Positions 9,082 to 64,000 of a stretch of DNA of 64,000 nt are shown here, piece after piece. The notes beneath the pieces are model-generated. The model was not told the origin of the DNA. It made no database searches and was given only the letters and a program-made list of their open reading frames with translations. Position numbers and translations under genes: made by a program. The stretch covers positions 48,632 through 112,631 of the IMG/VR virus record IMGVR_UViG_3300045988_116681. One strand, written 5' to 3'. How positions within the stretch are numbered: position 1 is the first letter of the stretch; the number at the start of each line of letters is the position of its first letter. The stretch comes from a virus.

Positions 9082-9854
9082 TTAATCATTATTATATTTT
9101 CCTCTCCACCTAAACAACTTCTCTGTTTTCTTAGGCTGATTATTCTTATTATAGTCAAGCGTTCTTCTCAATTCCTTTTCCCAGACAACTTCAAAATCGT
9201 CTGGCGCTTCTTGCTCGGAAATAAATACAATACATCTCTTAGAAAGTTCACGCATATATTCCCAAAATTCTTCGTGGTTAAAATCGCCAGTTGTATAACC
9301 AGTGGTTTTAGCATAAGGCGGGTCACAATATACAACCGCTCCATCTGGAATATCGACTTCACGATAATCAAGACAAGTAAAGTTGGCGTTTTGCACACCT
9401 TGTAAGTCACGAAGTAAGCTACGTTCCGCTCGGGCACAATAATTGTCACCTCGTTTATTACTTGCCAATCCACCAAACCACTTACCACCAAACGAACAGC
9501 CAAAACCAACAAAACCAGCTAACGCCTTATTCTCGTCTTTGTGCTCTTTGACGTAATAGTATTCTTCTTTAGTGATAATAGAAGGTGGTGTCCAGCCAGA
9601 TTGTAAGCCTTTCCACATTTCAATCAAATATGGATGTTTGTCATTAAGAATTTTGGTTTCTGCTTTTACTTTCGCTTCAACTGCACAAGACCCACAAAAC
9701 AGACTTACGAATGTCTGCCCCCCCCAAGTTCAAGGTGTGGTTGATAACTTGTGCAATCTGAGTTGAGATACGAGATTTTCCGCCCATGTATTGCATTGTT
9801 AATTACCTCCGAAATTTGTTTAGAAATACGAGATTTACCGCCTAAGTAACGCAT
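9082..9854 (-). CDS. Dam-like (D12 class) N6-adenine DNA methyltransferase, out of frame at a G8 tract in this assembly (candidate phase-variable gene)
   Basis: The body 9082..9627 carries DPPY. Upstream there are two ATGs (9854 and 9796), each encoding M(R/Q)Y(L/M)GGKSRIS... Motif I (FVSLFCGSCAV) is reached only with G7/G10 from ATG2 or G9 from ATG1. With G8 both reading frames stop. Confidence 0.8.
9718..9725 (-). repeat. G8 homopolymer in the 5' coding region of the Dam-like methyltransferase
   Basis: Counted C8 on the plus strand. Flanks read AACTT-G8-CAGACA on the sense strand. Confidence 0.95.
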
Positions 9855-9885
9855 ATAATCATCCTTTCATGTTGATGATTATATC

Positions 9886-10605
9886 TTATCTCATTTTAGT
9901 CGCTTTGTCAATACGCTCTTTGGCGATTTCAAAATAATTTTCATCAAGTTCCATACCGATAAAATTACGATTTGTATTGGCGCAAGCTACGCCTGTACTG
10001 CCAGACCCCATACAGTTGTCGAGAACGGTCATTCCTTCATTGGTATAGGTCTTAATTAGCCATTCAAGTAGGGCTACTGGCTTCTGTGTAGGATGAACAC
10101 GACTTGCGTCACGATTGAAAGAAAGAATAGACAACGGATTTCTTTCGCCGTTCTTGCTTTCGCTCCATGCTTGTTTTCTATCACCATAATTATCTGATAG
10201 CGAACCGTTCTTTGTACGAGTATAAGGCGTACTATACCAGAATTGCTTATTATATACTGGCTTTTTCTTATAGAAGATTGCAATTTCTTCATGAGACTTT
10301 AGTGGTTTTACATTGGCGTTAAGAAAATCACAGCCACGATTTTTATTCCAGACAAGATTATAACGCCACATCTTTGTGTTAGACAGCATAAGATTAGCCA
10401 TAAACAAGCCATCACAGAATAGAGCAATTACGCCATTGTTGGTGATGATACGATTGTACTGTTCCCACAACTTATCAAATGGAACAATCGTATCCCACTT
10501 ATTTTTGGTCGAGCCATAAGGCAAATCACATAGAATCATATCCACCGACTGGGGGGGGATATGGGGCATAAGTTCAAGGCAATCGCCATTCTTAATATCA
10601 ATCAT
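9886..10605 (-). CDS. DNA methyltransferase (N6_N4_Mtase family, beta class)
   Basis: DLPY follows the N-terminal domain. The C-terminus has VLDNCMGSGSTGVA (FxGxG-like) and IGMELDENY. Confidence 0.85.
   Translation of the reverse strand: MIDIKNGDCLELMPHIPPQSVDMILCDLPYGSTKNKWDTIVPFDKLWEQYNRIITNNGVIALFCDGLFMANLMLSNTKMWRYNLVWNKNRGCDFLNANVKPLKSHEEIAIFYKKKPVYNKQFWYSTPYTRTKNGSLSDNYGDRKQAWSESKNGERNPLSILSFNRDASRVHPTQKPVALLEWLIKTYTNEGMTVLDNCMGSGSTGVACANTNRNFIGMELDENYFEIAKERIDKATKMR
10551..10558 (+). repeat. G8 (C8 on the coding strand) homopolymer in codons 15-18 of the methyltransferase
   Basis: The coding strand reads CAT ATC CCC CCC CAG. The gene is in frame (ON) as assembled. Confidence 0.95.
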
Positions 10606-10633: not shown

Positions 10634-11155
10634 TTACTTCTTTTGAATTTCTTCAAAGACAATCTGCTTTGGTAGCATCTTATGGCATACATACACACTA
10701 CTGAAAGGTGGGTTAAGGCTGGGCTTCTGGTCTGCGTAGTCCTTGAAGTAAGCCACTCTGCGGTTAAGATACATGATTTCAAACTCATTGTTCTTAAACA
10801 TATCGAATCTTCGCTGAGATTCAAACAAGCCTACAACACCCACCAACATTGCGAACGGCTTGCCAATTTCAAACAGTCGTTCCAACACTTCTGTCTTGAC
10901 GCTATAAGGCGGATTGCTGATAATCATGTCGCACTGTGGTACTGGCGTTGTGAAAAAGTCCTGACCATTATCAATGTGCGTACAGATTACCTTGTTGCCC
11001 TGTGCTTTAAGCATTTTAACAAAGTGTGATTCTTCTGTGTCAAAAGGACACCATACTGTCAGTTGGGGGGGGGCGTAAACCAAGATAGGCTTGACCGCAT
11101 AGGGCGGTGTATAGAAGTTATCATTGCCAGAGCCAGCTACTTTATCCATTTTCAT
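10634..11155 (-). CDS. N6-adenine DNA methyltransferase (NPPY motif)
   Basis: Contains ISNPPYS and an N-terminal YTPP motif. ATG at 11155 follows GGAGAG. Confidence 0.75.
   Translation of the reverse strand: MKMDKVAGSGNDNFYTPPYAVKPILVYAPPQLTVWCPFDTEESHFVKMLKAQGNKVICTHIDNGQDFFTTPVPQCDMIISNPPYSVKTEVLERLFEIGKPFAMLVGVVGLFESQRRFDMFKNNEFEIMYLNRRVAYFKDYADQKPSLNPPFSSVYVCHKMLPKQIVFEEIQKK
11065..11073 (+). repeat. G9 (C9 on the coding strand) homopolymer in the 5' part of the NPPY methyltransferase
   Basis: The coding strand reads TAC GCC CCC CCC CAA. In frame as assembled. The plus-strand flanks GTCAGTT-G9-CGTAAAC resemble those of the tract at 25553. Confidence 0.95.
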
Positions 11156-11168
11156 GATTGCTCTCTCC

Positions 11169-11624
11169 TTACTTAATCTCAATAATTTTTTCTGCGTTCC
11201 CAATTATCATATCATTGGAAACGCTTTTAACATAAAAGAAATACTTCTTTACTCCGTCCCTTACTTTGTAGATGATAAAGATATAGTCTTGTCCAAGAAC
11301 AAATGGCTCATCGTCTGTGTATTGAATGGTTTGGCTAACAACTTGTTCGTCAATGATTTCAGCGTGAGCGTCTAACCACGCTGAATCAATTTCTTCTACG
11401 CAACAAGCGGGATAAGAAAAATTTTCTGTACCGTTATAATAAGTGGTATAGTAGTCAAATTTACCGTTATTGCTCTTCTTGGCTTCTACAATATGCCCCC
11501 AATCTCCACATCGAGGAAGGATACCGAAAATAAAATCAATGCCGTCTACAGTGTCTACGAGTCTTTCGTCAAATTCTTTAGCACTTTTCAGCGCTTCTTC
11601 CCAAGGCTTAATATAAACTTTCAT
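11169..11624 (-). CDS. hypothetical protein (tandem paralog 1)
   Basis: MKVYIKPWEEALKSAKEF..; a paralog of the next gene upstream. Confidence 0.6.
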   Translation of the reverse strand: MKVYIKPWEEALKSAKEFDERLVDTVDGIDFIFGILPRCGDWGHIVEAKKSNNGKFDYYTTYYNGTENFSYPACCVEEIDSAWLDAHAEIIDEQVVSQTIQYTDDEPFVLGQDYIFIIYKVRDGVKKYFFYVKSVSNDMIIGNAEKIIEIK

Positions 11625-24685: not shown

Positions 24686-24714
24686 ATGATACCACAAAGG
24701 AAGTTGTCTGTCAA
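24686..24714 (-). promoter_or_regulatory. sigma-A-type promoter with a conserved upstream A/T module
   Basis: TTGACA-17-TATCAT, preceded by ATAAAATTTCATAAAA. The same module occurs at 29856 and 40471. Confidence 0.6.
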
Positions 24715-24730
24715 GGGATTTTATGAAATT

Positions 24731-25216
24731 TTATCTCAATCCGTAGATTGTTTGAATTACTGGTGCGGGGAAATGCTCTGTATCATATTGGGATAAATAT
24801 ACTTCGTCAAGTTTAACTGAAGAATCAAGCCTTGAAGTCGAATCACTGTAAATATTTCCTTGAGCATCATAAGCAAGACCTTGAATCACTGTGTTCCACC
24901 ATCTCCAAGAGGTCGTTCCAACACATTGTGTACATCTATTAAATGTCATACAAAAACTATTATCTTCAGTAAACAAATGATTGCCACGATACGAGTAAAT
25001 AAACAAATAATATGAGTTTGAAGTAAGAGCGACATATTGTAAAGCCACGCCCTTAGGTACAGTAACAACATTCATTACAGAAGCGTAAGAATCATAGTCA
25101 ACAAAATGTGAATAAGTGCCTGTGCTTGTGATTTCTCGCTGACCAATAATATTCCAACCCAATCCATTAGAAGCGGGTGGAGTATAAGCATCTGAAAGCA
25201 TTACTTTTGCGTTCAT
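24731..25216 (-). CDS. hypothetical 161-aa protein, downstream partner of B4
   Basis: ATG at 25216 (MNAKVML..) sits in an ATGA context. It is the end point of the stop-free -1 frame that runs across B4. Confidence 0.6.
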   Translation of the reverse strand: MNAKVMLSDAYTPPASNGLGWNIIGQREITSTGTYSHFVDYDSYASVMNVVTVPKGVALQYVALTSNSYYLFIYSYRGNHLFTEDNSFCMTFNRCTQCVGTTSWRWWNTVIQGLAYDAQGNIYSDSTSRLDSSVKLDEVYLSQYDTEHFPAPVIQTIYGLR

Positions 25217-25238
25217 GCTACCACCCCGCTTTCGGAGT

Positions 25239-25544
25239 TTAGTGGAATAATAGCACTTGGATTCCATACCAATTTGTGAGACAATTCAAAGTAATATCGT
25301 GTTCTGTTATGCTGACAACCATCCGATTTGCGTTTTGAGTATAAAAATAGCCTGATTGCACAAAGGTTTCTGCAACGTATTCTGTTGATAAAGAAGGATA
25401 CAAACTTCCGCTTACCACAATCATTTTCACAGGAGCGTTGAGAGGAATCACTTTGTTGATACCCTGCTCTAATTCCCCTATTTCGACTGTTGTTACTTGA
25501 AGTGCTGTACCTTCCAACATTTCCTTCATTACTTTTGCATCCAT
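25239..25544 (-). CDS. family B small protein (B4)
   Basis: MDAKVMKEMLEG... It is a paralog of the proteins at 32610, 34998 and 40870. Confidence 0.6.
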   Translation of the reverse strand: MDAKVMKEMLEGTALQVTTVEIGELEQGINKVIPLNAPVKMIVVSGSLYPSLSTEYVAETFVQSGYFYTQNANRMVVSITEHDITLNCLTNWYGIQVLLFH

Positions 25545-25552
25545 TACTTACG

Positions 25553-25559
25553 CCCCCCC
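25553..25559 (-). repeat. G7 homopolymer 8 nt upstream of the B4 ATG
   Basis: Sense strand reads TTCAGTT-G7-CGTAAGTA-ATG. Confidence 0.95.
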
Positions 25560-25611
25560 AACTGAACGAGAAGTTTGTAAGTTGTGAGCGTCAGGAGGAT
25601 TGCTTACGCGC

Positions 25612-25656
25612 TCAACGTAAGCCCCCCCCCAGTGAAACAATGGTTTGGTTCTTCAT
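25612..25656 (-). CDS. leader ORF L6 (14 aa as assembled) containing a G9 tract
   Basis: AAGGAGG, 9 nt, then ATG. It translates to MKNQTIVSLGGGLR*, and the stop lies inside the hairpin GCTTACG-ttgagcg-CGTAAGC. Confidence 0.45.
   Translation of the reverse strand: MKNQTIVSLGGGLR
25622..25630 (-). repeat. G9 homopolymer in leader ORF L6
   Basis: Counted C9 on the plus strand. Confidence 0.95.
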
Positions 25657-25689
25657 AGACCAAATCCTCCTTTATAAAATATATTAACC

Positions 25690-32590: not shown

Positions 32591-32976
32591 GCAATCACCT
32601 CGTTTCTATTTAATAGAACGCTACTGCATAAGCCGAGTCTTTCCCTTGTAAATGGTCTATGGTCATTGTTTTGCCAGCGAATGTTACATCTATATAATCG
32701 TTTTCTGAGTTGGAGTCGGCATAATGGTAAGTTGTTGTTTGTTCGGAATAATAAATGCTTACTGAATATCCGTAATTGTATCCACTGGCAGAATAATACA
32801 TACTTAAAGAAACAAATTTCGGGACGTGAGAGAAAGTAAATTTTATTTCTTCGTTGTAGGCTTCTGCTTCTTTGTATTCCGCAGTTAAGCCTTGCACTTG
32901 TAAAGGCTCTCCCATAATCTTTCCGTTCATCTACTCTGCCCCCCCCAAGTCTCATTGAGGTTTGCATATTATACAT
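32587..32976 (-). CDS. leader ORF L2, which as assembled (G8) continues through all of B1 in the -1 frame and stops on the start codon of the A gene
   Basis: This is the same frame as track ORF 32587..33030. ATG at 32976 follows AAAGGA. Its TGA (32587-32589) overlaps ATG 32588-32590. Confidence 0.4.
   Translation of the reverse strand: MYNMQTSMRLGGGRVDERKDYGRAFTSARLNCGIQRSRSLQRRNKIYFLSRPEICFFKYVLFCQWIQLRIFSKHLLFRTNNNLPLCRLQLRKRLYRCNIRWQNNDHRPFTRERLGLCSSVLLNRNEVIA
32610..32930 (-). CDS. family B small protein (B1)
   Basis: MNGKIMGEPLQVQGLTAEYKE... A paralog of the 40870 protein (shared ..GLTAEY.. and ..VTF(A/S)GK.. segments). Confidence 0.65.
   Translation of the reverse strand: MNGKIMGEPLQVQGLTAEYKEAEAYNEEIKFTFSHVPKFVSLSMYYSASGYNYGYSVSIYYSEQTTTYHYADSNSENDYIDVTFAGKTMTIDHLQGKDSAYAVAFY
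32939..32946 (-). repeat. G8 homopolymer 8 nt upstream of the B1 ATG
   Basis: Sense strand reads GAGACTT-G8-CAGAGTAG-ATG. Confidence 0.95.
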
Positions 32977-33406: not shown

Positions 33407-33469
33407 TAGGAGAATGCTAACGCATTGCCCCCCCCAACCGAAGTCAGGGTTGACTGAATGTTAAACATA
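33407..33469 (-). CDS. leader ORF L1 (20 aa as assembled)
   Basis: AAGGAGAA, 4 nt, then ATG. It translates to MFNIQSTLTSVGGGNALAFS*. Confidence 0.45.
33429..33436 (-). repeat. G8 homopolymer in L1
   Basis: Counted C8 on the plus strand. Confidence 0.95.
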
Positions 33470-33859: not shown

Positions 33860-33969
33860 ACAGTCACCTGCTTTCGGTGACTCACATTGCTCAAATATTC
33901 AGTTGTTAGGGAGTTATTGCCCCCCCCCAAGTGAAGCATAAGTTCACTCAGAGAAAACTTGATACGCAT
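33856..33969 (-). CDS. leader ORF L3 (37 aa), terminating in ATGA on the start of the A gene
   Basis: AAGGAGTG SD. It translates to MRIKFSLSELMLHLGGGNNSLTTEYLSNVSHRKQVTV*. Its TGA overlaps ATG 33859. Confidence 0.5.
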   Translation of the reverse strand: MRIKFSLSELMLHLGGGNNSLTTEYLSNVSHRKQVTV

Positions 33970-34493: not shown

Positions 34494-34532
34494 TCAGAAG
34501 AACGCCCCCCCCAAGTTAAAGCGAAGGTTCAT
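34494..34532 (-). CDS. leader ORF L4 (12 aa as assembled)
   Basis: AAAGGAGAA SD. It translates to MNLRFNLGGAFF*. Confidence 0.4.
   Translation of the reverse strand: MNLRFNLGGAFF
34505..34512 (-). repeat. G8 homopolymer in L4
   Basis: Counted C8 on the plus strand. Confidence 0.95.
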
Positions 34533-35309: not shown

Positions 35310-35410
35310 TAGTACGCCCACCTCTCTTGTTGCTCAACCGAGAGGTAATCATCGGTGGGCTTACTTGGCGTATGCCCCCCCCAGTGACGGGGAGTTTTAG
35401 TCTTAATCAT
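35309..35410 (-). CDS. leader ORF L5 (33 aa), terminating TAATG on the B3 start
   Basis: GGAGAA SD. It translates to MIKTKTPRHWGGHTPSKPTDDYLSVEQQERWAY*. Confidence 0.45.
   Translation of the reverse strand: MIKTKTPRHWGGHTPSKPTDDYLSVEQQERWAY
35375..35382 (-). repeat. G8 homopolymer in L5
   Basis: Counted C8 on the plus strand. Confidence 0.95.
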
Positions 35411-40487: not shown

Positions 40488-40847
40488 TTATTGTAAAGTT
40501 CCAACTGCGATTTTGGAAAGTATACTATTTATTTGTATATTGGCATTGATTTGTACAAAATTAGCATTTATATAATATTGTGTGCCTACATAAATTTCTG
40601 CTATACCTCCCCAATTATCACTGTAAAAACGAATTGTGGTATAATTTGAAGATTGCAGTGTGCTAAGTTGTAACATAACACTACTATCATAAATTCCATA
40701 AATTATTATATATTTTTCTTTATGGTTTTCTTCTTGCATAATAGAAGTGGTATAACGACTTGAAGTTACTTCAGACAAATCATAATATTCTTCAGCCACA
40801 AAAGAAACATCAGACAGAACAGGCGATTGCGCGATAATTGCATTCAT
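40488..40847 (-). CDS. family A small protein (partner of B2)
   Basis: MNAIIAQSP....IAVGTLQ. SD GAGGTGA. ATGA context. Confidence 0.65.
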   Translation of the reverse strand: MNAIIAQSPVLSDVSFVAEEYYDLSEVTSSRYTTSIMQEENHKEKYIIIYGIYDSSVMLQLSTLQSSNYTTIRFYSDNWGGIAEIYVGTQYYINANFVQINANIQINSILSKIAVGTLQ

Positions 40848-40869
40848 GCAATCACCTCATTTCTGGCGG

Positions 40870-41193
40870 TTAGAAGAAGCCTACTGCAAAAACCTTGCTT
40901 GCACTGACTGAAGATAATTCTATATTTTTCCCAGAAAATGTTACATAAAATGAATTGGTTTGTGAACCTTCCAAAGCGTAATACACATAGCAATTGTCTG
41001 GAAACCATGCTATATTCACGCTGTATGCTGCGTTTGAAGTGTACCTTTGAGGACTCCAAAGTGTTAGGCTTACAAAACTCGGCGCTTGGGAAAAAGAAAG
41101 CGTGACTTCTTGTTGATGGACTTCTTCTTCGAGATACTCTGCCGTCAGCCCGTTTTCCTGCTCCACAAATTCCTTCATTACTTTTGCGTTCAT
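40870..41193 (-). CDS. family B small protein (B2)
   Basis: MNAKVMKEFVEQENGLTAEY... Confidence 0.65.
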   Translation of the reverse strand: MNAKVMKEFVEQENGLTAEYLEEEVHQQEVTLSFSQAPSFVSLTLWSPQRYTSNAAYSVNIAWFPDNCYVYYALEGSQTNSFYVTFSGKNIELSSVSASKVFAVGFF

Positions 41194-41201
41194 TTAATCT
41201 G

Positions 41202-41209
41202 CCCCCCCC
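41202..41209 (-). repeat. G8 homopolymer 8 nt upstream of the B2 ATG
   Basis: Sense strand reads GCGAGTT-G8-CAGATTAA-ATG. Confidence 0.95.
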
Positions 41210-41243
41210 AACTCGCGCCAAGGTTGACAGATTACAGCTTACA

Positions 41244-41294
41244 TCACCGTGTAAGCCCCCCCCAAGTGAAACGGAGGTTTGGTAAATTGAACAT
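41244..41294 (-). CDS. leader ORF L7 (16 aa as assembled)
   Basis: AAAGGAGGA SD. It translates to MFNLPNLRFTWGGLTR*. Confidence 0.45.
   Translation of the reverse strand: MFNLPNLRFTWGGLTR
41256..41263 (-). repeat. G8 homopolymer in L7
   Basis: Counted C8. Followed by the hairpin GCTTAC-acggtgat-GTAAGC. Confidence 0.95.
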
Positions 41295-41332
41295 AAAAAT
41301 GTCCTCCTTTAATTATATTATGAGGAAAATCC

Positions 41333-47652: not shown

Positions 47653-48912
47653 TTACATTTTTATTGTTTGAATCATTTGCGTAGTTCTTGCTGTAATTCT
47701 TTTACATCTTTGGAGTTTTGGTGTTTTATATCCTCTTGGCAAATAAGAAAAATTAAGACGGTTTCCTTCAAAATCCATTAAAACGACTTGCCCTTGTATA
47801 CCTCTACCTTTAATATAACATTCTACTCCAAAATATCTGACTTTATCAAATTTTCTGAACCCGTTAATTTTTGTTGTGGTTATACGCCTTTCAGACCGAA
47901 CACCTTTTGTTTGCTGAAAGTCGCCTTCGGGAACACATTTCTTTTTATAAAGATTGGTATTTATTGTAAAATTTTTACCTTGTGTCGCTATTACGCAAGC
48001 ATCATAATAATGTTCTTTATCCACTTTTAATTGCAAACGATTAAACTTAGTAATATATCCATAAGTCTCTATTGCTTGCGGATATAATCTAAAAAGCTGT
48101 GTTCGTATACTATTCATTTGAGTGGCAAATTTGAGAACACCTTTCGCTTTTCCTTCTTGCTTGAGAATTATTTTCCCATTGTGTAATTTTTTATGACAAG
48201 TATGACAGAGAGTTATCAGATTGTTTTCTTCGTCAGACCCACCTTGGCTACGAAAAATTATATGATGAACTTCCAATCTTTTATCTTTATGTTTATTTTT
48301 ACAATATTGACAAGTATAGTTATCACGATTAAGCACCTTTGCTTTTGTGTTTTCAAACCCATAATTGACTCCTTTTTGATACCCCCAATGTCGAATTTCA
48401 GCGTTAGCAAGCAAAGGGTTTTTCAACAAATGAGTATCAAATTGGCTTGTTTCAAATACTATTTCAGAAATAGGCAAAATACTTTTAATAAATTCTATTT
48501 CTTTCACATGACTATACAATTTACTTACCATTGTTGGGCTAAACCGATTTTTTCTAAAAGAGTTAGCACGATTTAACCATCTTGGTTTTCTATAACGAGT
48601 TTTACGACTTCTTCTGTTTCTACGATAAGAAGCTCTACGAGTCATTTTATTAGTAATATTATTTCTTACTATTACTTCTGACATATATACTATCTTTCCC
48701 TTATCCGTAGCCACAGCCGTACCAAAAGTTCCGCTTCCAGTATCAACACCCAAAGTCAATTTTTGAATATAATTTGTAGAATCGTTAAGCAGTTTAATCG
48801 TAAAAGGTTCACGCCTTTTTACTTTTGCTTTACCTTGTTTAAGTAATAATCTTGCAATTACATTTGTGCAAGGCATTAAGGGCTTGTTGTTTTTAGAAAC
48901 TACATAAACCAT
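47653..48912 (-). CDS. iscB: IscB RNA-guided nuclease (PLMP, split RuvC, HNH)
   Basis: KPLMPC (PLMP), LGVDTGSGTFG (RuvC-I), Arg-rich bridge helix RRASYRRNRRSRKTRYRKPRW, EIVFETSQFD (RuvC-II), CQYC..HHIIFRSQGGSDEENNLITLCHTCH (HNH), HYYDACVIA (RuvC-III). Confidence 0.9.
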   Translation of the reverse strand: MVYVVSKNNKPLMPCTNVIARLLLKQGKAKVKRREPFTIKLLNDSTNYIQKLTLGVDTGSGTFGTAVATDKGKIVYMSEVIVRNNITNKMTRRASYRRNRRSRKTRYRKPRWLNRANSFRKNRFSPTMVSKLYSHVKEIEFIKSILPISEIVFETSQFDTHLLKNPLLANAEIRHWGYQKGVNYGFENTKAKVLNRDNYTCQYCKNKHKDKRLEVHHIIFRSQGGSDEENNLITLCHTCHKKLHNGKIILKQEGKAKGVLKFATQMNSIRTQLFRLYPQAIETYGYITKFNRLQLKVDKEHYYDACVIATQGKNFTINTNLYKKKCVPEGDFQQTKGVRSERRITTTKINGFRKFDKVRYFGVECYIKGRGIQGQVVLMDFEGNRLNFSYLPRGYKTPKLQRCKRITARTTQMIQTIKM

Positions 48913-49169
48913 GATAAGTCTCCTTATAAATACTCTGTCTTATGACAGGTGATGCGTACTTTGTCTCACTATTACCATGAGATTGTTCCGACTTCAACTC
49001 GACAATGATATAAAGGCTTTTAAGTATATATCACAAGGCTATGCTTACTCTGACCTAACTTAAATATATACGATAGAGCGATGGTCTGTTGCGTCAACCA
49101 AAGGTATCATGACCTAAATATCGTAGCTATTATTTCTAATAACTAAGTCTGGCAGACTGTTTAACAGAA
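48913..49169 (-). ncRNA. candidate omegaRNA of IscB
   Basis: A structured non-coding stretch lying directly upstream of iscB, the position where omegaRNAs are encoded. I cannot confirm the fold by eye. Confidence 0.45.
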
Positions 49170-49254
49170 GCCCACCACTCTTAATTGAGAGGTGGGCGGT
49201 CTGCGGAGGTGAAAACCATGAAAAGCAAACGCCTTTCTTATGGCACGATATGGG

Positions 49255-49329
49255 TGGAGCGCTATGGCGTAATCGAAACGCCATCTTCAGTTTGGAAAAC
49301 TGAGGTTCTTACCATTAAACTAATAGCGC
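49255..49329 (-). tRNA. tRNA-Gly(UCC)
   Basis: Manual fold: acceptor GCGCTAT/ATAGCGC, anticodon arm TCAGT-ttTCCaa-ACTGA, T arm GGCGT-ttcgatt-ACGCC, discriminator U, encoded CCA. Confidence 0.8.
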
Positions 49330-50577: not shown

Positions 50578-50652
50578 TGGAGCGCCACATCAGAATCGAA
50601 CTGACGTTTCCAGTTTGGGAAACTGGTGTACTAACCACTGTACGAGTGGCGC
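50578..50652 (-). tRNA. tRNA-Gly(CCC)
   Basis: Acceptor GCGCCAC/GTGGCGC, anticodon arm CCAGT-ttCCCaa-ACTGG, T arm GTCAG-ttcgatt-CTGAT, discriminator U, encoded CCA. Confidence 0.8.
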
Positions 50653-63591: not shown

Positions 63592-63951
63592 TTATTCGAG
63601 CGTTCCTATTTCAATAGATGTATAATAATCATTTAGATTTAAGCGATTTTGGTCATTATCGTACATTGTTATATTTACATAACTATTATCGGTAGATCTC
63701 TTGAATCGCGTCCAAACCGTATTATTATAAGGCTCTGGATAGAAGCAAAACCAATACTTATTAGCAGTTGGGTCAGTACAGAAAGCGCAAATAATAGAAA
63801 TTAAATTGTTTTTTGTCACAACTTTAATATACTTATTAATTATGTTTGTATAAAAAGTATAATCTGTATTATATAAATCTGCTGTTTGTTCAGTCTTAAA
63901 CACCAAACTTCCCTCTGGCTTTTCAATCTTACCAACAACAATAGCATTCAT
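63592..63951 (-). CDS. family A small protein
   Basis: MNAIVVGKIEKPEG....IEIGTLE. ATG at 63951 in a TGATG context. Confidence 0.65.
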   Translation of the reverse strand: MNAIVVGKIEKPEGSLVFKTEQTADLYNTDYTFYTNIINKYIKVVTKNNLISIICAFCTDPTANKYWFCFYPEPYNNTVWTRFKRSTDNSYVNITMYDNDQNRLNLNDYYTSIEIGTLE

Positions 63952-63992
63952 CAATAATCACCACCTTTCGGCAGTTGATTACTTAACCAATG

Positions 63993-64000
63993 CCCCCCCC
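63993..64000 (-). repeat. G homopolymer of at least 8 nt, cut by the window edge
   Basis: The plus strand ends ..AATGCCCCCCCC. Confidence 0.9.

Follow-up and report, generated by a model that had tools for sequence, protein, structure and literature searches.

In a 64,000-nucleotide (nt) stretch of phage DNA (IMG/VR record IMGVR_UViG_3300045988_116681, positions 48,632 to 112,631; called the window below), the gene B4 has a -1 reading frame that is free of stop codons along its whole length and ends on the start codon of the next gene, C4. The phage record is ~112 kb long and uncultured, and all coordinates given here are positions in the window unless stated otherwise. B4 belongs to one of at least eight poly-G cassettes in the window (seven complete and one cut by the window edge), in which a short leader open reading frame (ORF) runs into a homopolymeric G tract. 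We propose, with a probability of about 65%, that the tracts are phase-variable switches acting by translational coupling, and that ribosomes travel across B to C along the open -1 frame. Since reaching C would require crossing the whole of B in the -1 frame, B would be kept free of -1 stops.

The B4 cassette contains the following features, all of them on the minus strand.

25666-25672, minus strand: Shine-Dalgarno (SD) sequence AAGGAGG of leader ORF L6, read from the sequence, 9 nt upstream of the ATG at 25656
25612-25656, minus strand: leader ORF L6 in its present G9 state, MKNQTIVSLGGGLR then TGA, 14 codons
25622-25630, minus strand: tract 1 (the 'gate'), G9 on the coding strand; only G8 (or G11) lets the leader past the hairpin
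25602-25622, minus strand: hairpin 1, GCTTACG / loop TTGAGCG / CGTAAGC, from sequence and predicted fold
25593-25598, minus strand: CCTCCT, an anti-SD-like stretch, predicted to pair with a G tract in the minimum-free-energy fold only
25553-25559, minus strand: tract 2 (the 'selector'), G7, which doubles as an SD-like element 8 nt upstream of the B4 ATG
25239-25544, minus strand: gene B4, 101 amino acids, a small all-beta protein (ORF; AlphaFold2 model)
25213-25590, minus strand: stop-free -1 frame over B4, 125 codons long and closed by the TGA of ATGA; proposed to serve as the ribosome conduit
24731-25216, minus strand: gene C4, 161 amino acids (ORF), whose start ATG overlaps the conduit stop

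In the present state (G9, G7) the leader stops early, at a TGA (25614-25612) that falls in the loop of hairpin 1. The sequence-only reading that this work followed up had described the 14-codon leader with its G9 tract and its stop within the hairpin, had claimed that a G8 tract would carry the leader to the second tract, and had translated the -1 frame of B4 as stop-free up to a TGA overlapping the ATG at 25216. All of these coordinates proved right. With tract 1 at G8, the leader is 35 codons long, runs through the G7 tract and stops 3 nt short of the B4 ATG, and the -1 frame is open from 25590 to its TGA at 25215-25213, which overlaps the C4 start as ATGA. The remark that this frame has no start codon of its own stands in so far as it holds no ATG and no usable start, but late TTG codons are present.

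The same reading had tied the open frame to frame changes at the G tracts, and a tract-length simulation gives the predicted routing. The gate opens with tract 1 at G8 and is closed at the present G9; with the gate open, G6 or G7 at tract 2 ends the leader at the B4 start, and G8 extends it to 147 codons, up to the C4 ATGA. In the proposed mechanism, tract 1 would therefore act as the gate and tract 2 as the selector between B4 and C4. Both tracts vary among related loci (L numbers below). Tract 1 is G9 in L003 and L016 and G10 in L012; tract 2 is G8 in L003 and G9 in L016, and in L012 (positions 9985-9993 of that locus) it is interrupted by an A, a G-to-A change that leaves GGGAGGGGG. Judged by its sequence, this interrupted form would be a typical 'locked' phase and an almost perfect SD site for B.

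An open frame of this length is far from what the genome would produce by chance. Genes in the window carry on average 0.118 -1-frame stops per codon, and among 70 window ORFs examined B4 is the sole one without any -1 stop; for the other three B genes of the window (B41, B35 and B32), a longer overlapping -1 ORF had been selected for that survey instead. All four B genes have 0 stops in the -1 frame, which in each case ends on the ATGA or TGATG of the C start. For the given protein and the genome codon usage, a gene without any -1 stop would arise with a probability of 1.9e-5 (B4), 1.2e-5 (B41), 2.2e-9 (B32) or 9e-7 (B35). When synonymous codons are permuted within each gene, this probability is 0.0028, 0.0019, <5e-5 and 5e-5, respectively, and when codon order is shuffled it is <=1.5e-4. 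The other B proteins share just 21-23% identity with B4, indicating that the open frame is not inherited sequence. The sequence-only reading had claimed that in all four strongly diverged paralogs no stop interrupts the -1 frame between the G tract and the following start codon, and that this is hard to attribute to chance; both claims are upheld by these figures, an open -1 frame of ~105 codons being very improbable in codon-shuffled B genes.

Relatives were obtained in two ways. Two IMG/VR contigs of ~114 kb were reached through DnaB and RecJ, and a protein profile of B matched 101 unnamed protein clusters. Many of these lie on contigs of 96-114 kb that come from numerous samples, and twelve loci were fetched from them; a search of IMG/VR with a back-translated B pattern found no relatives. 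The window and these loci together hold 19 distinct B nucleotide sequences in 13 clusters of <50% identity. Eighteen of the 19 precede a C gene (12 clusters of <50% amino acid identity), and these 18 have no -1 stop at all, their conduits ending without exception on the ATGA or TGATG of C. Over all 19 alleles (1994 codons) there are 221 stops in the +1 frame versus 4 in the -1 frame. The frame stays open even where the B sequence is wholly different, as the check on metagenomic relatives proposed with the earlier reading had called for: it is open in alleles without likeness to B4 past the first eight residues, such as B4' in L003, and in the unlike alleles P0077, P0081 and P0101. Three more genes in the B position, which the profile had missed, also lie under open delivery ORFs, of 119-159 codons.

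The four -1 stops all sit in a single allele, P0087 (L007, L008 and L009), in which the C gene is deleted to its last ~20 nt and B is retained. This allele reads as a natural knock-out control, in which the conduit is lost where C is deleted. The way in which the other alleles avoid stops is equally specific. We define an at-risk junction as one at which the next codon begins with AA, AG or GA, so that a T-ending codon before it makes a -1 stop. The 18 alleles contain 451 at-risk junctions, and a T-ending codon precedes none of them (0/451), yet T-ending codons make up 39% of B codons at all other junctions; in reference genes they account for 40% at both kinds of junction. This indicates selection aimed specifically at stops in the -1 frame.

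These results leave it barely credible that the open frame has no function and is a by-product of B composition, shared ancestry or assembly error. Compared with the genome average, B is indeed somewhat poorer in T-ending codons and richer in A-ending ones, and the B alleles are mutually homologous. Nevertheless, the within-gene synonymous shuffles keep composition and still give P <=0.003 per gene, T-ending codons stand at their normal 39% everywhere except at the at-risk junctions, and alleles of <25% identity with saturated synonymous sites all keep the frame open, the sole exception coinciding with the loss of C. As candidates, chance and composition are refuted by the shuffles, the allele set and the junction counts.

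We also considered that the -1 frame may be a true second gene, encoding a basic leader-fused protein of ~125-150 amino acids made in one tract phase. Its length far beyond chance would fit such a gene, as would the fact that it can be reached from a real SD and ATG through the tract, and four gene-caller products (P0042, P0060, P0090 and P0092) end in a -1-frame C-terminus. The substitution pattern speaks otherwise. Between close allele pairs, the B frame shows 89 synonymous and 171 nonsynonymous substitutions, the -1 frame 45 and 215, and no purifying selection on a -1-frame protein was found in these pairs; stop avoidance is confined to the stop-creating junctions. Where allele pairs are more diverged, an excess of substitutions falls on third positions of B codons. 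The -1 peptides, which have a high content of Arg, Lys, Ser and Cys, show no relation from one allele to another, the equivalent ORF in cassettes without a B gene has merely 11-67 codons, the ORF always ends exactly on the next start codon, and stops arise once C is lost though B stays. B4, on the other hand, gives a confident AlphaFold2 model (predicted local distance difference test score, pLDDT, 87.4; nine strands, all-beta; 53-sequence alignment). The confident model and the substitution pattern together indicate that B codes for a protein and that the -1 frame is open but not conserved as a protein, which makes a second gene very unlikely. An independent overlapping gene was rejected on the -1-frame substitutions and the stops in the C-less allele.

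The four gene-caller products deserve a separate remark. Each joins a B N-terminus to a -1-frame C-terminus (...NEVIA or ...SGVVA). Judging by their sequences, these hybrid 'proteins' are annotation artefacts, in which indels inside B run on in the open conduit.

The remaining cassettes of the window, again on the minus strand, follow two layouts.

40488-41308, minus strand: B41 cassette; leader ATG 41294, tract 1 41256-41263, tract 2 41202-41209
41193-40870, minus strand: gene B41; conduit to the TGA at 40846-40844; gene C41 40847-40488
34589-35410, minus strand: B35 cassette; leader ATG 35410, tract 35375-35382, gene B35 35309-34998
34980-34978, minus strand: B35 conduit stop (TGATG); gene C35 34978-34589
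32168-33045, minus strand: B32 cassette; leader ATG 32976, tract 32939-32946, gene B32 32930-32610
32589-32587, minus strand: B32 conduit stop; gene C32 32590-32168
33027-34564, minus strand: three A-type cassettes (without a B gene); leaders 34532, 33969 and 33468; tracts 34505-34512, 33920-33928 and 33428-33435; genes 34415-34014, 33859-33515 and 33356-33027
63592-64000, minus strand: A-type cassette cut by the window edge; tract 63993-64000, gene 63951-63592

Common to all is a strong SD, a leader ORF of ~10 codons, a G7-G10 tract and a hairpin, with one post-tract frame ending on the downstream start codon (ATGA or TGATG) and the other frames stopping early. A-type cassettes comprise leader, tract, hairpins and a single gene beginning MNGIV; in B-type cassettes a B gene sits between the tract and a C gene, whose N-terminus is A-like. 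The window, at 38% GC, has 13 G/C tracts of 7-9 nt, a length sufficient for mutable homopolymers, which need about 7 G/C or more. In simulation, exactly one phase reaches the start in each of the three complete A-type cassettes, and the other two phases stop 10-25 codons earlier. For the two cassettes of the window with two tracts (B4 and B41), 3x3 length tables were computed. In the B35 cassette the leader ends at the B start with G8, at the C start with G7 and at an early stop with G9; at B32, two phases deliver to B and one to C, and in the present G8 state the leader reads through to C32.

Counting the window and the related loci, a stop lies on or beside the ATG in 47 of 47 distinct A/C genes, and in nearly all cases the upstream ORF that ends there holds a G tract. 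This ORF is 11-67 codons long without an intervening B and 108-163 codons long where it crosses one. B starts stand to the upstream stop as ATGA, TAATG or TAA-ATG, or 3 nt apart. At the DnaB locus of a relative there is an A-type cassette without B whose leader extension is merely 'GGGIRLNAVSSKEVIA*', with the same -EVIA stop context in which the B-type conduits of the window end. Because of this short extension and its shared stop context, B looks as if it had been inserted into a leader extension under the constraint of remaining open.

Together these data suggest the following mechanism. A ribosome would start at the strong SD and ATG and translate the ~10-codon leader into the G7-G10 tract, the length of which would change, most likely by slipped-strand mispairing in DNA replication, and so set the frame past the tract. 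In closed frames the ribosome would stop inside the first hairpin. In the open frame it would terminate on a stop that overlaps or abuts a downstream start (ATGA, TGATG or TAATG), unfold the structure over the ribosome-binding site and reinitiate, that is, act by translational coupling. B-type cassettes would offer two delivery points, the B start and the C start.

Predicted RNA folds are consistent with the last steps. They place the SD of downstream genes in hairpins (GUCACC/GGUGAC before 33859, CCUCCU/AGGGGG before 34415 and GCCCACC/GGUGGGC before B35). The mean SD pairing probability is 0.63 at A/C starts and 0.77 at B starts, compared with 0.53 at 67 control starts (p = 0.005 for A/C and 1.5e-5 for B, the compared sequences being related to one another). 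Hairpin 1 is kept in B4-type and B41-type leaders, with one compensatory pair (A-U to G-C, 5 versus 4 sequences), and pyrimidine stretches upstream of each tract can pair with the tract. No known RNA family was found in the cassettes by Rfam. As a side observation, each cassette in the A-type array has inverted-repeat pairs TTGCTCA/TGAGCAA on either side of its SD, leader and tract (34564/34464, 33999/33893, 33503/33396 and 33001/32984), which are predicted to form a long-range stem enclosing the leader; the two heptamers together number 28 on one strand, where shuffles give 8.3 ± 2.8.

The transcription signals bear on another possibility, namely that translation of the -1 frame serves to cover the mRNA and prevents Rho-dependent termination, attenuation or RNA decay upstream of C. 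There is a precedent in Streptococcus gallolyticus, where a leader peptide of repeat-variable length controls a stem-loop terminator (PMC3894217), and the cassettes stand at the ends of transcription units without a promoter of their own: no strong promoter was found inside them, and at B4 the next unit starts directly past the cassette.

26547-25690, minus strand: gene of a NAGPA/SLH-domain protein, upstream of the B4 cassette (Pfam families as listed for its orthologues)
24686-24714, minus strand: sigma-70-type promoter, TTGACA-17-TATCAT with an upstream TG, directly past the cassette, where it starts the next transcription unit

A terminator scan, however, found no intrinsic terminator on the coding strand in any cassette, the hairpins having no U run. 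Translation in the B frame would cover the same RNA, and the stop found on or beside the start at every A/C gene is predicted by coupling and not needed for coverage. We therefore consider mRNA coverage quite unlikely. A terminator-based attenuator resembling that of pil1, the S. gallolyticus locus, was rejected on the same scan.

Tract length, on which the proposed switching depends, differs between closely related genomes. Comparing the window with L002/L003 (~95% nucleotide identity), the tract at 35375 is G8 in the window and G9 in the relatives, that at 34505 is G8/G7, that at 33920 is G9/G7 and that at 25553 is G7/G8. Over the related loci, lengths range from G6 to G11, the G11 tract occurring at one locus. 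Among 43 leader tracts from about nine genomes, 23 are G8, 11 are G9, seven are G7, one is G6 and one is G10. The predicted outcomes of these 43 are 31 early stops, nine deliveries to A/C and three to B, and the same cassette is predicted to be ON in some genomes and OFF in others.

The window also contains three methyltransferase genes with an N-terminal G/C tract inside the gene, the classical position for phase variation (9082-9900, tract 9718-9725; 9886-10605, tract 10551-10558; 10634-11203, tract 11065-11073). The first, a Dam-like gene, is out of frame at G8. It has tandem alternative N-termini (MRYLGGKSRIS... and MQYMGGKSRIS...) in different frames, both open to the tract; a G9 tract would fuse the catalytic part to the first of them, and a G7 tract to the second. 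In the other two genes (C8 and C9) the frame is intact. A frame-independent motif surrounds the tracts: in 46 distinct contexts from the window and L002-L016, AAC stands at -16 to -14 (96%, 85% and 83%), T at -1 (100%) and C at +1 (98%). The motif is also present at the methyltransferase tract 9718 and in the cultured phage PMBT24, and the pyrimidine stretch after AAC is able to pair with the G run. RNA structure, a slippage context and a recognition site are candidates for its role.

The frame could also be shifted without any heritable change, by ribosome slippage (-1/+1 on GGG GGG G) or by RNA polymerase stuttering in every infected cell. Early stop, B and C would then be produced in fixed ratios, with the -1 frame still serving as a conduit, and the system would be one of recoding, not of phase variation. 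The G run formally fits X XXY YYZ with a hairpin after it, and early termination in 31 of 43 consensus states would be wasteful unless slippage rescued some expression. The phage bears tRNA-Gly(CCC) and tRNA-Gly(UCC), suggesting that GGG decoding matters. A recoding site tuned in this way would be expected to keep its length, though, and the tracts run from G6 to G11 and differ between near-identical genomes; the hairpin starts 0-1 nt past the tract instead of at the canonical spacing of 5-9 nt, and the same tracts occur in the three methyltransferase genes in the classical phase-variation layout. A non-heritable shift is compatible with, and not exclusive of, switching by tract length, and as the explanation of the cassettes we regard it as unlikely. 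A canonical programmed -1 frameshift site was rejected on the varying tract length and the hairpin spacing. The two tRNA-Gly genes lie at 50578-50652 and 49255-49329, and the phage also encodes tRNAs for Gln, Lys and Leu. For a phage of 38% GC with regulatory leaders made of GGG runs, it is striking to have a GGG decoder, which could adjust decoding or slippage at the tracts.

The anatomy, the frame logic, the statistics, the conservation, the tract-length polymorphism and the lack of coding constraint in the -1 frame are direct observations, and several points weigh against building switching by coupling on them. We infer leader translation, delivery and reinitiation as the drivers of B and C expression from sequence, and frequent, heritable switching and the roles of B and C likewise. 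All genomes are consensus assemblies, which places within-population heterogeneity and reversibility outside their reach, and homopolymer miscalls may underlie some of the length differences. The C-less control rests on one allele (P0087), and the -1 frame stays open at two loci where C is truncated, to 23 amino acids in L010/L011 and to 46 in L007; an open frame beside a truncated C would fit recent decay and is not positive support. The support for SD sequestration is modest, the sequences not being independent. B has an SD-like element of its own (tract 2, or GGGAGGGGG in L012), which means that B may be expressed even with the gate closed. Finally, there is no known advantage of a state in which C is made without B. 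A more far-reaching form of the proposal, on which we are evenly divided, is combinatorial contingency: some ten independently switching poly-G leader ORFs would route ribosomes, B would be stop-free solely for transit, and each B-type cassette would have three heritable states (none; B and probably C; C alone) for hypervariable, small and beta-rich proteins that are possibly exchangeable modules of fibre tips or host interaction.

What the B, C and A proteins do can be approached only indirectly. Scans of PHROGs and Pfam gave no family for any of them, megablast, blastn and tblastn found neither the cassettes nor B in GenBank phages, and the matches of an A/C profile search were confined to this phage clade, none of them annotated. 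Homologues of B and C occur only in this clade, and those of C4 number 16, all within the same phage family. B evolves fast, with more nonsynonymous than synonymous changes in close allele pairs. A Foldseek search of the PDB with the B4 model returned nothing significant (best E 0.06). Against BFVD there were weak matches only (E >=6e-3, template modelling (TM) score <=0.58), enriched for tail-fibre C-terminal domains; this likeness is suggestive and was kept out of the evidence on function. The structure prediction for C4 gave no usable model (pLDDT 32.5). Aligning B with A/C by hhalign matched only the N-terminal ~33 residues (57% probability), so a common ancestry of B and C is not established.

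Two observations in the surroundings touch on these proteins. Just upstream of the cassette array lie two tail-fibre-like genes (36919-35835). In addition, the coding regions of B, C and A are swapped for unalignable sequence between genomes that are ~95% identical in leaders and flanks, as in window 25516-24734 versus L003 7152-7907 and, versus L002, in window 40834-40506, 35286-34992 and 34386-34024. This cassette-like allele exchange leaves the leaders and the MN(A/G)(K/I)(V/I) N-termini conserved. That B and C are exchangeable fibre-tip or host-interaction modules is plausible but unproven.

The cassettes appear to work like simple-repeat contingency loci combined with translational coupling. 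As in the contingency loci of Campylobacter, Neisseria and Haemophilus, G/C homopolymers of 7-10 nt shift the frame by ±1 changes, there are many independent loci per genome, and most are OFF in the consensus. In contrast to those loci, the tract here lies in a separate upstream ORF of ~10 codons and not in the regulated gene or its promoter, and the output is the choice of start codon, with three outcomes (none, B or C) in place of on and off. In Campylobacter phages, polyG tracts reportedly lie inside receptor-binding-protein coding sequences, a finding ascribed to Sorensen et al. in 2021. The tracts described here differ in that they lie in leader ORFs with coupling, and one gene is open in two frames. 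Campylobacter phage tracts are the closest phage precedent, and blast searches of GenBank phages gave no sequence relationship to them. Work cited in a passage of PMC12823448 (Cell Rep 35:109214) describes several hypermutable polyG tracts in a Campylobacter phage, proposed to give rise to phenotypically distinct subpopulations; the feature in common is a virulent-type phage with several such tracts.

Mechanistically, the nearest precedent is pil1 of S. gallolyticus with its repeat-variable leader peptide (Danne et al. 2014, PMC3894217), where a repeat in the leader-peptide gene sets the reach of the leader ribosome and a longer leader disrupts a downstream stem-loop, turning the operon on. 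There the repeats are GCAGA pentanucleotides, the target is a transcription terminator and there are two states; here the repeat is a G homopolymer, there is no terminator, stops overlap starts, and the ribosome's path crosses a gene of 100 codons in the -1 frame. Termination-reinitiation coupling in bacterial and phage operons uses the same ATGA/TGATG overlaps as the A/C genes, whereas in the cassettes a mutable tract sets the frame of the upstream ORF, a non-coding leader that in the B-type is superimposed on gene B. In the paramyxovirus P gene, co-transcriptional mRNA editing by G insertion opens overlapping V/W frames, which encode functional domains. The likeness is that the G count at a short run decides the frame that is read and that alternative frames are kept open; the differences are that paramyxoviruses are RNA viruses and that the alternative frame here is without protein-level constraint. 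In full-text literature searches we found neither a leader-ORF tract choosing among downstream start codons nor a gene whose second frame is kept clear of stops for ribosomes to pass along.

Among cultured phages, PMBT24 and CB457P2 of Enterocloster bolteae are the closest relatives (39% amino acid identity in the Pol III alpha polymerase), followed by SPbeta. PMBT24 (OQ326496.2) has a homologous module, ATG-GCAGTACTAAACCGCTTCCCAACT-G9-CATACC, with the same AAC...ACT-Gn-CATAC flanks, and the tract there is in the N-terminal coding region of a long ORF, as in classical in-frame switching. In this record (L017; ~78317 and ~73705) the G9 tract as deposited puts the ORF out of frame, and there is a second, remnant copy with G6. 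The module falls in an unannotated gap of 575 nt on which the genome paper is silent, and B or C genes were not found in PMBT24. From its sequence, the G9 locus looks like an undescribed classical phase-variable gene in a cultured isolate.

The window itself is a phage replication region, encoding a Pol III alpha-like polymerase, RecJ, primase, DnaB, Sak4 and NrdD, along with an amidase and XerD-like recombinases. Within 47653-49204 it also has a HEARO RNA (RF02033, 86.8 bits) directly upstream of a 419-amino-acid ORF with an HNH domain, and the two look like an IscB/HEARO-type mobile element in the phage; relatives bear OrfB_IS605/TnpB insertions at other sites.

If the proposal is correct, it would add a third way for a repeat tract to control genes, beyond a tract in an ORF or a promoter: a tract in an upstream ORF that picks among downstream start codons. 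It would also be an unusually clean case of selection holding a frame open without encoding a protein, as the junction counts illustrate, the selection acting on a reading frame for ribosome transit and not on its product. Annotators and overlapping-gene predictors would misread such a frame as dual coding, and hybrid 'proteins' of this origin are already in databases. The design is compact and fully specified by sequence, and it is therefore directly testable with synthetic reporters. For the phages themselves, it would mean that uncultured relatives of Enterocloster phages and SPbeta may hedge the expression of about ten fast-evolving genes and three DNA methyltransferases, which would bear on their host range and on evasion of host defences.

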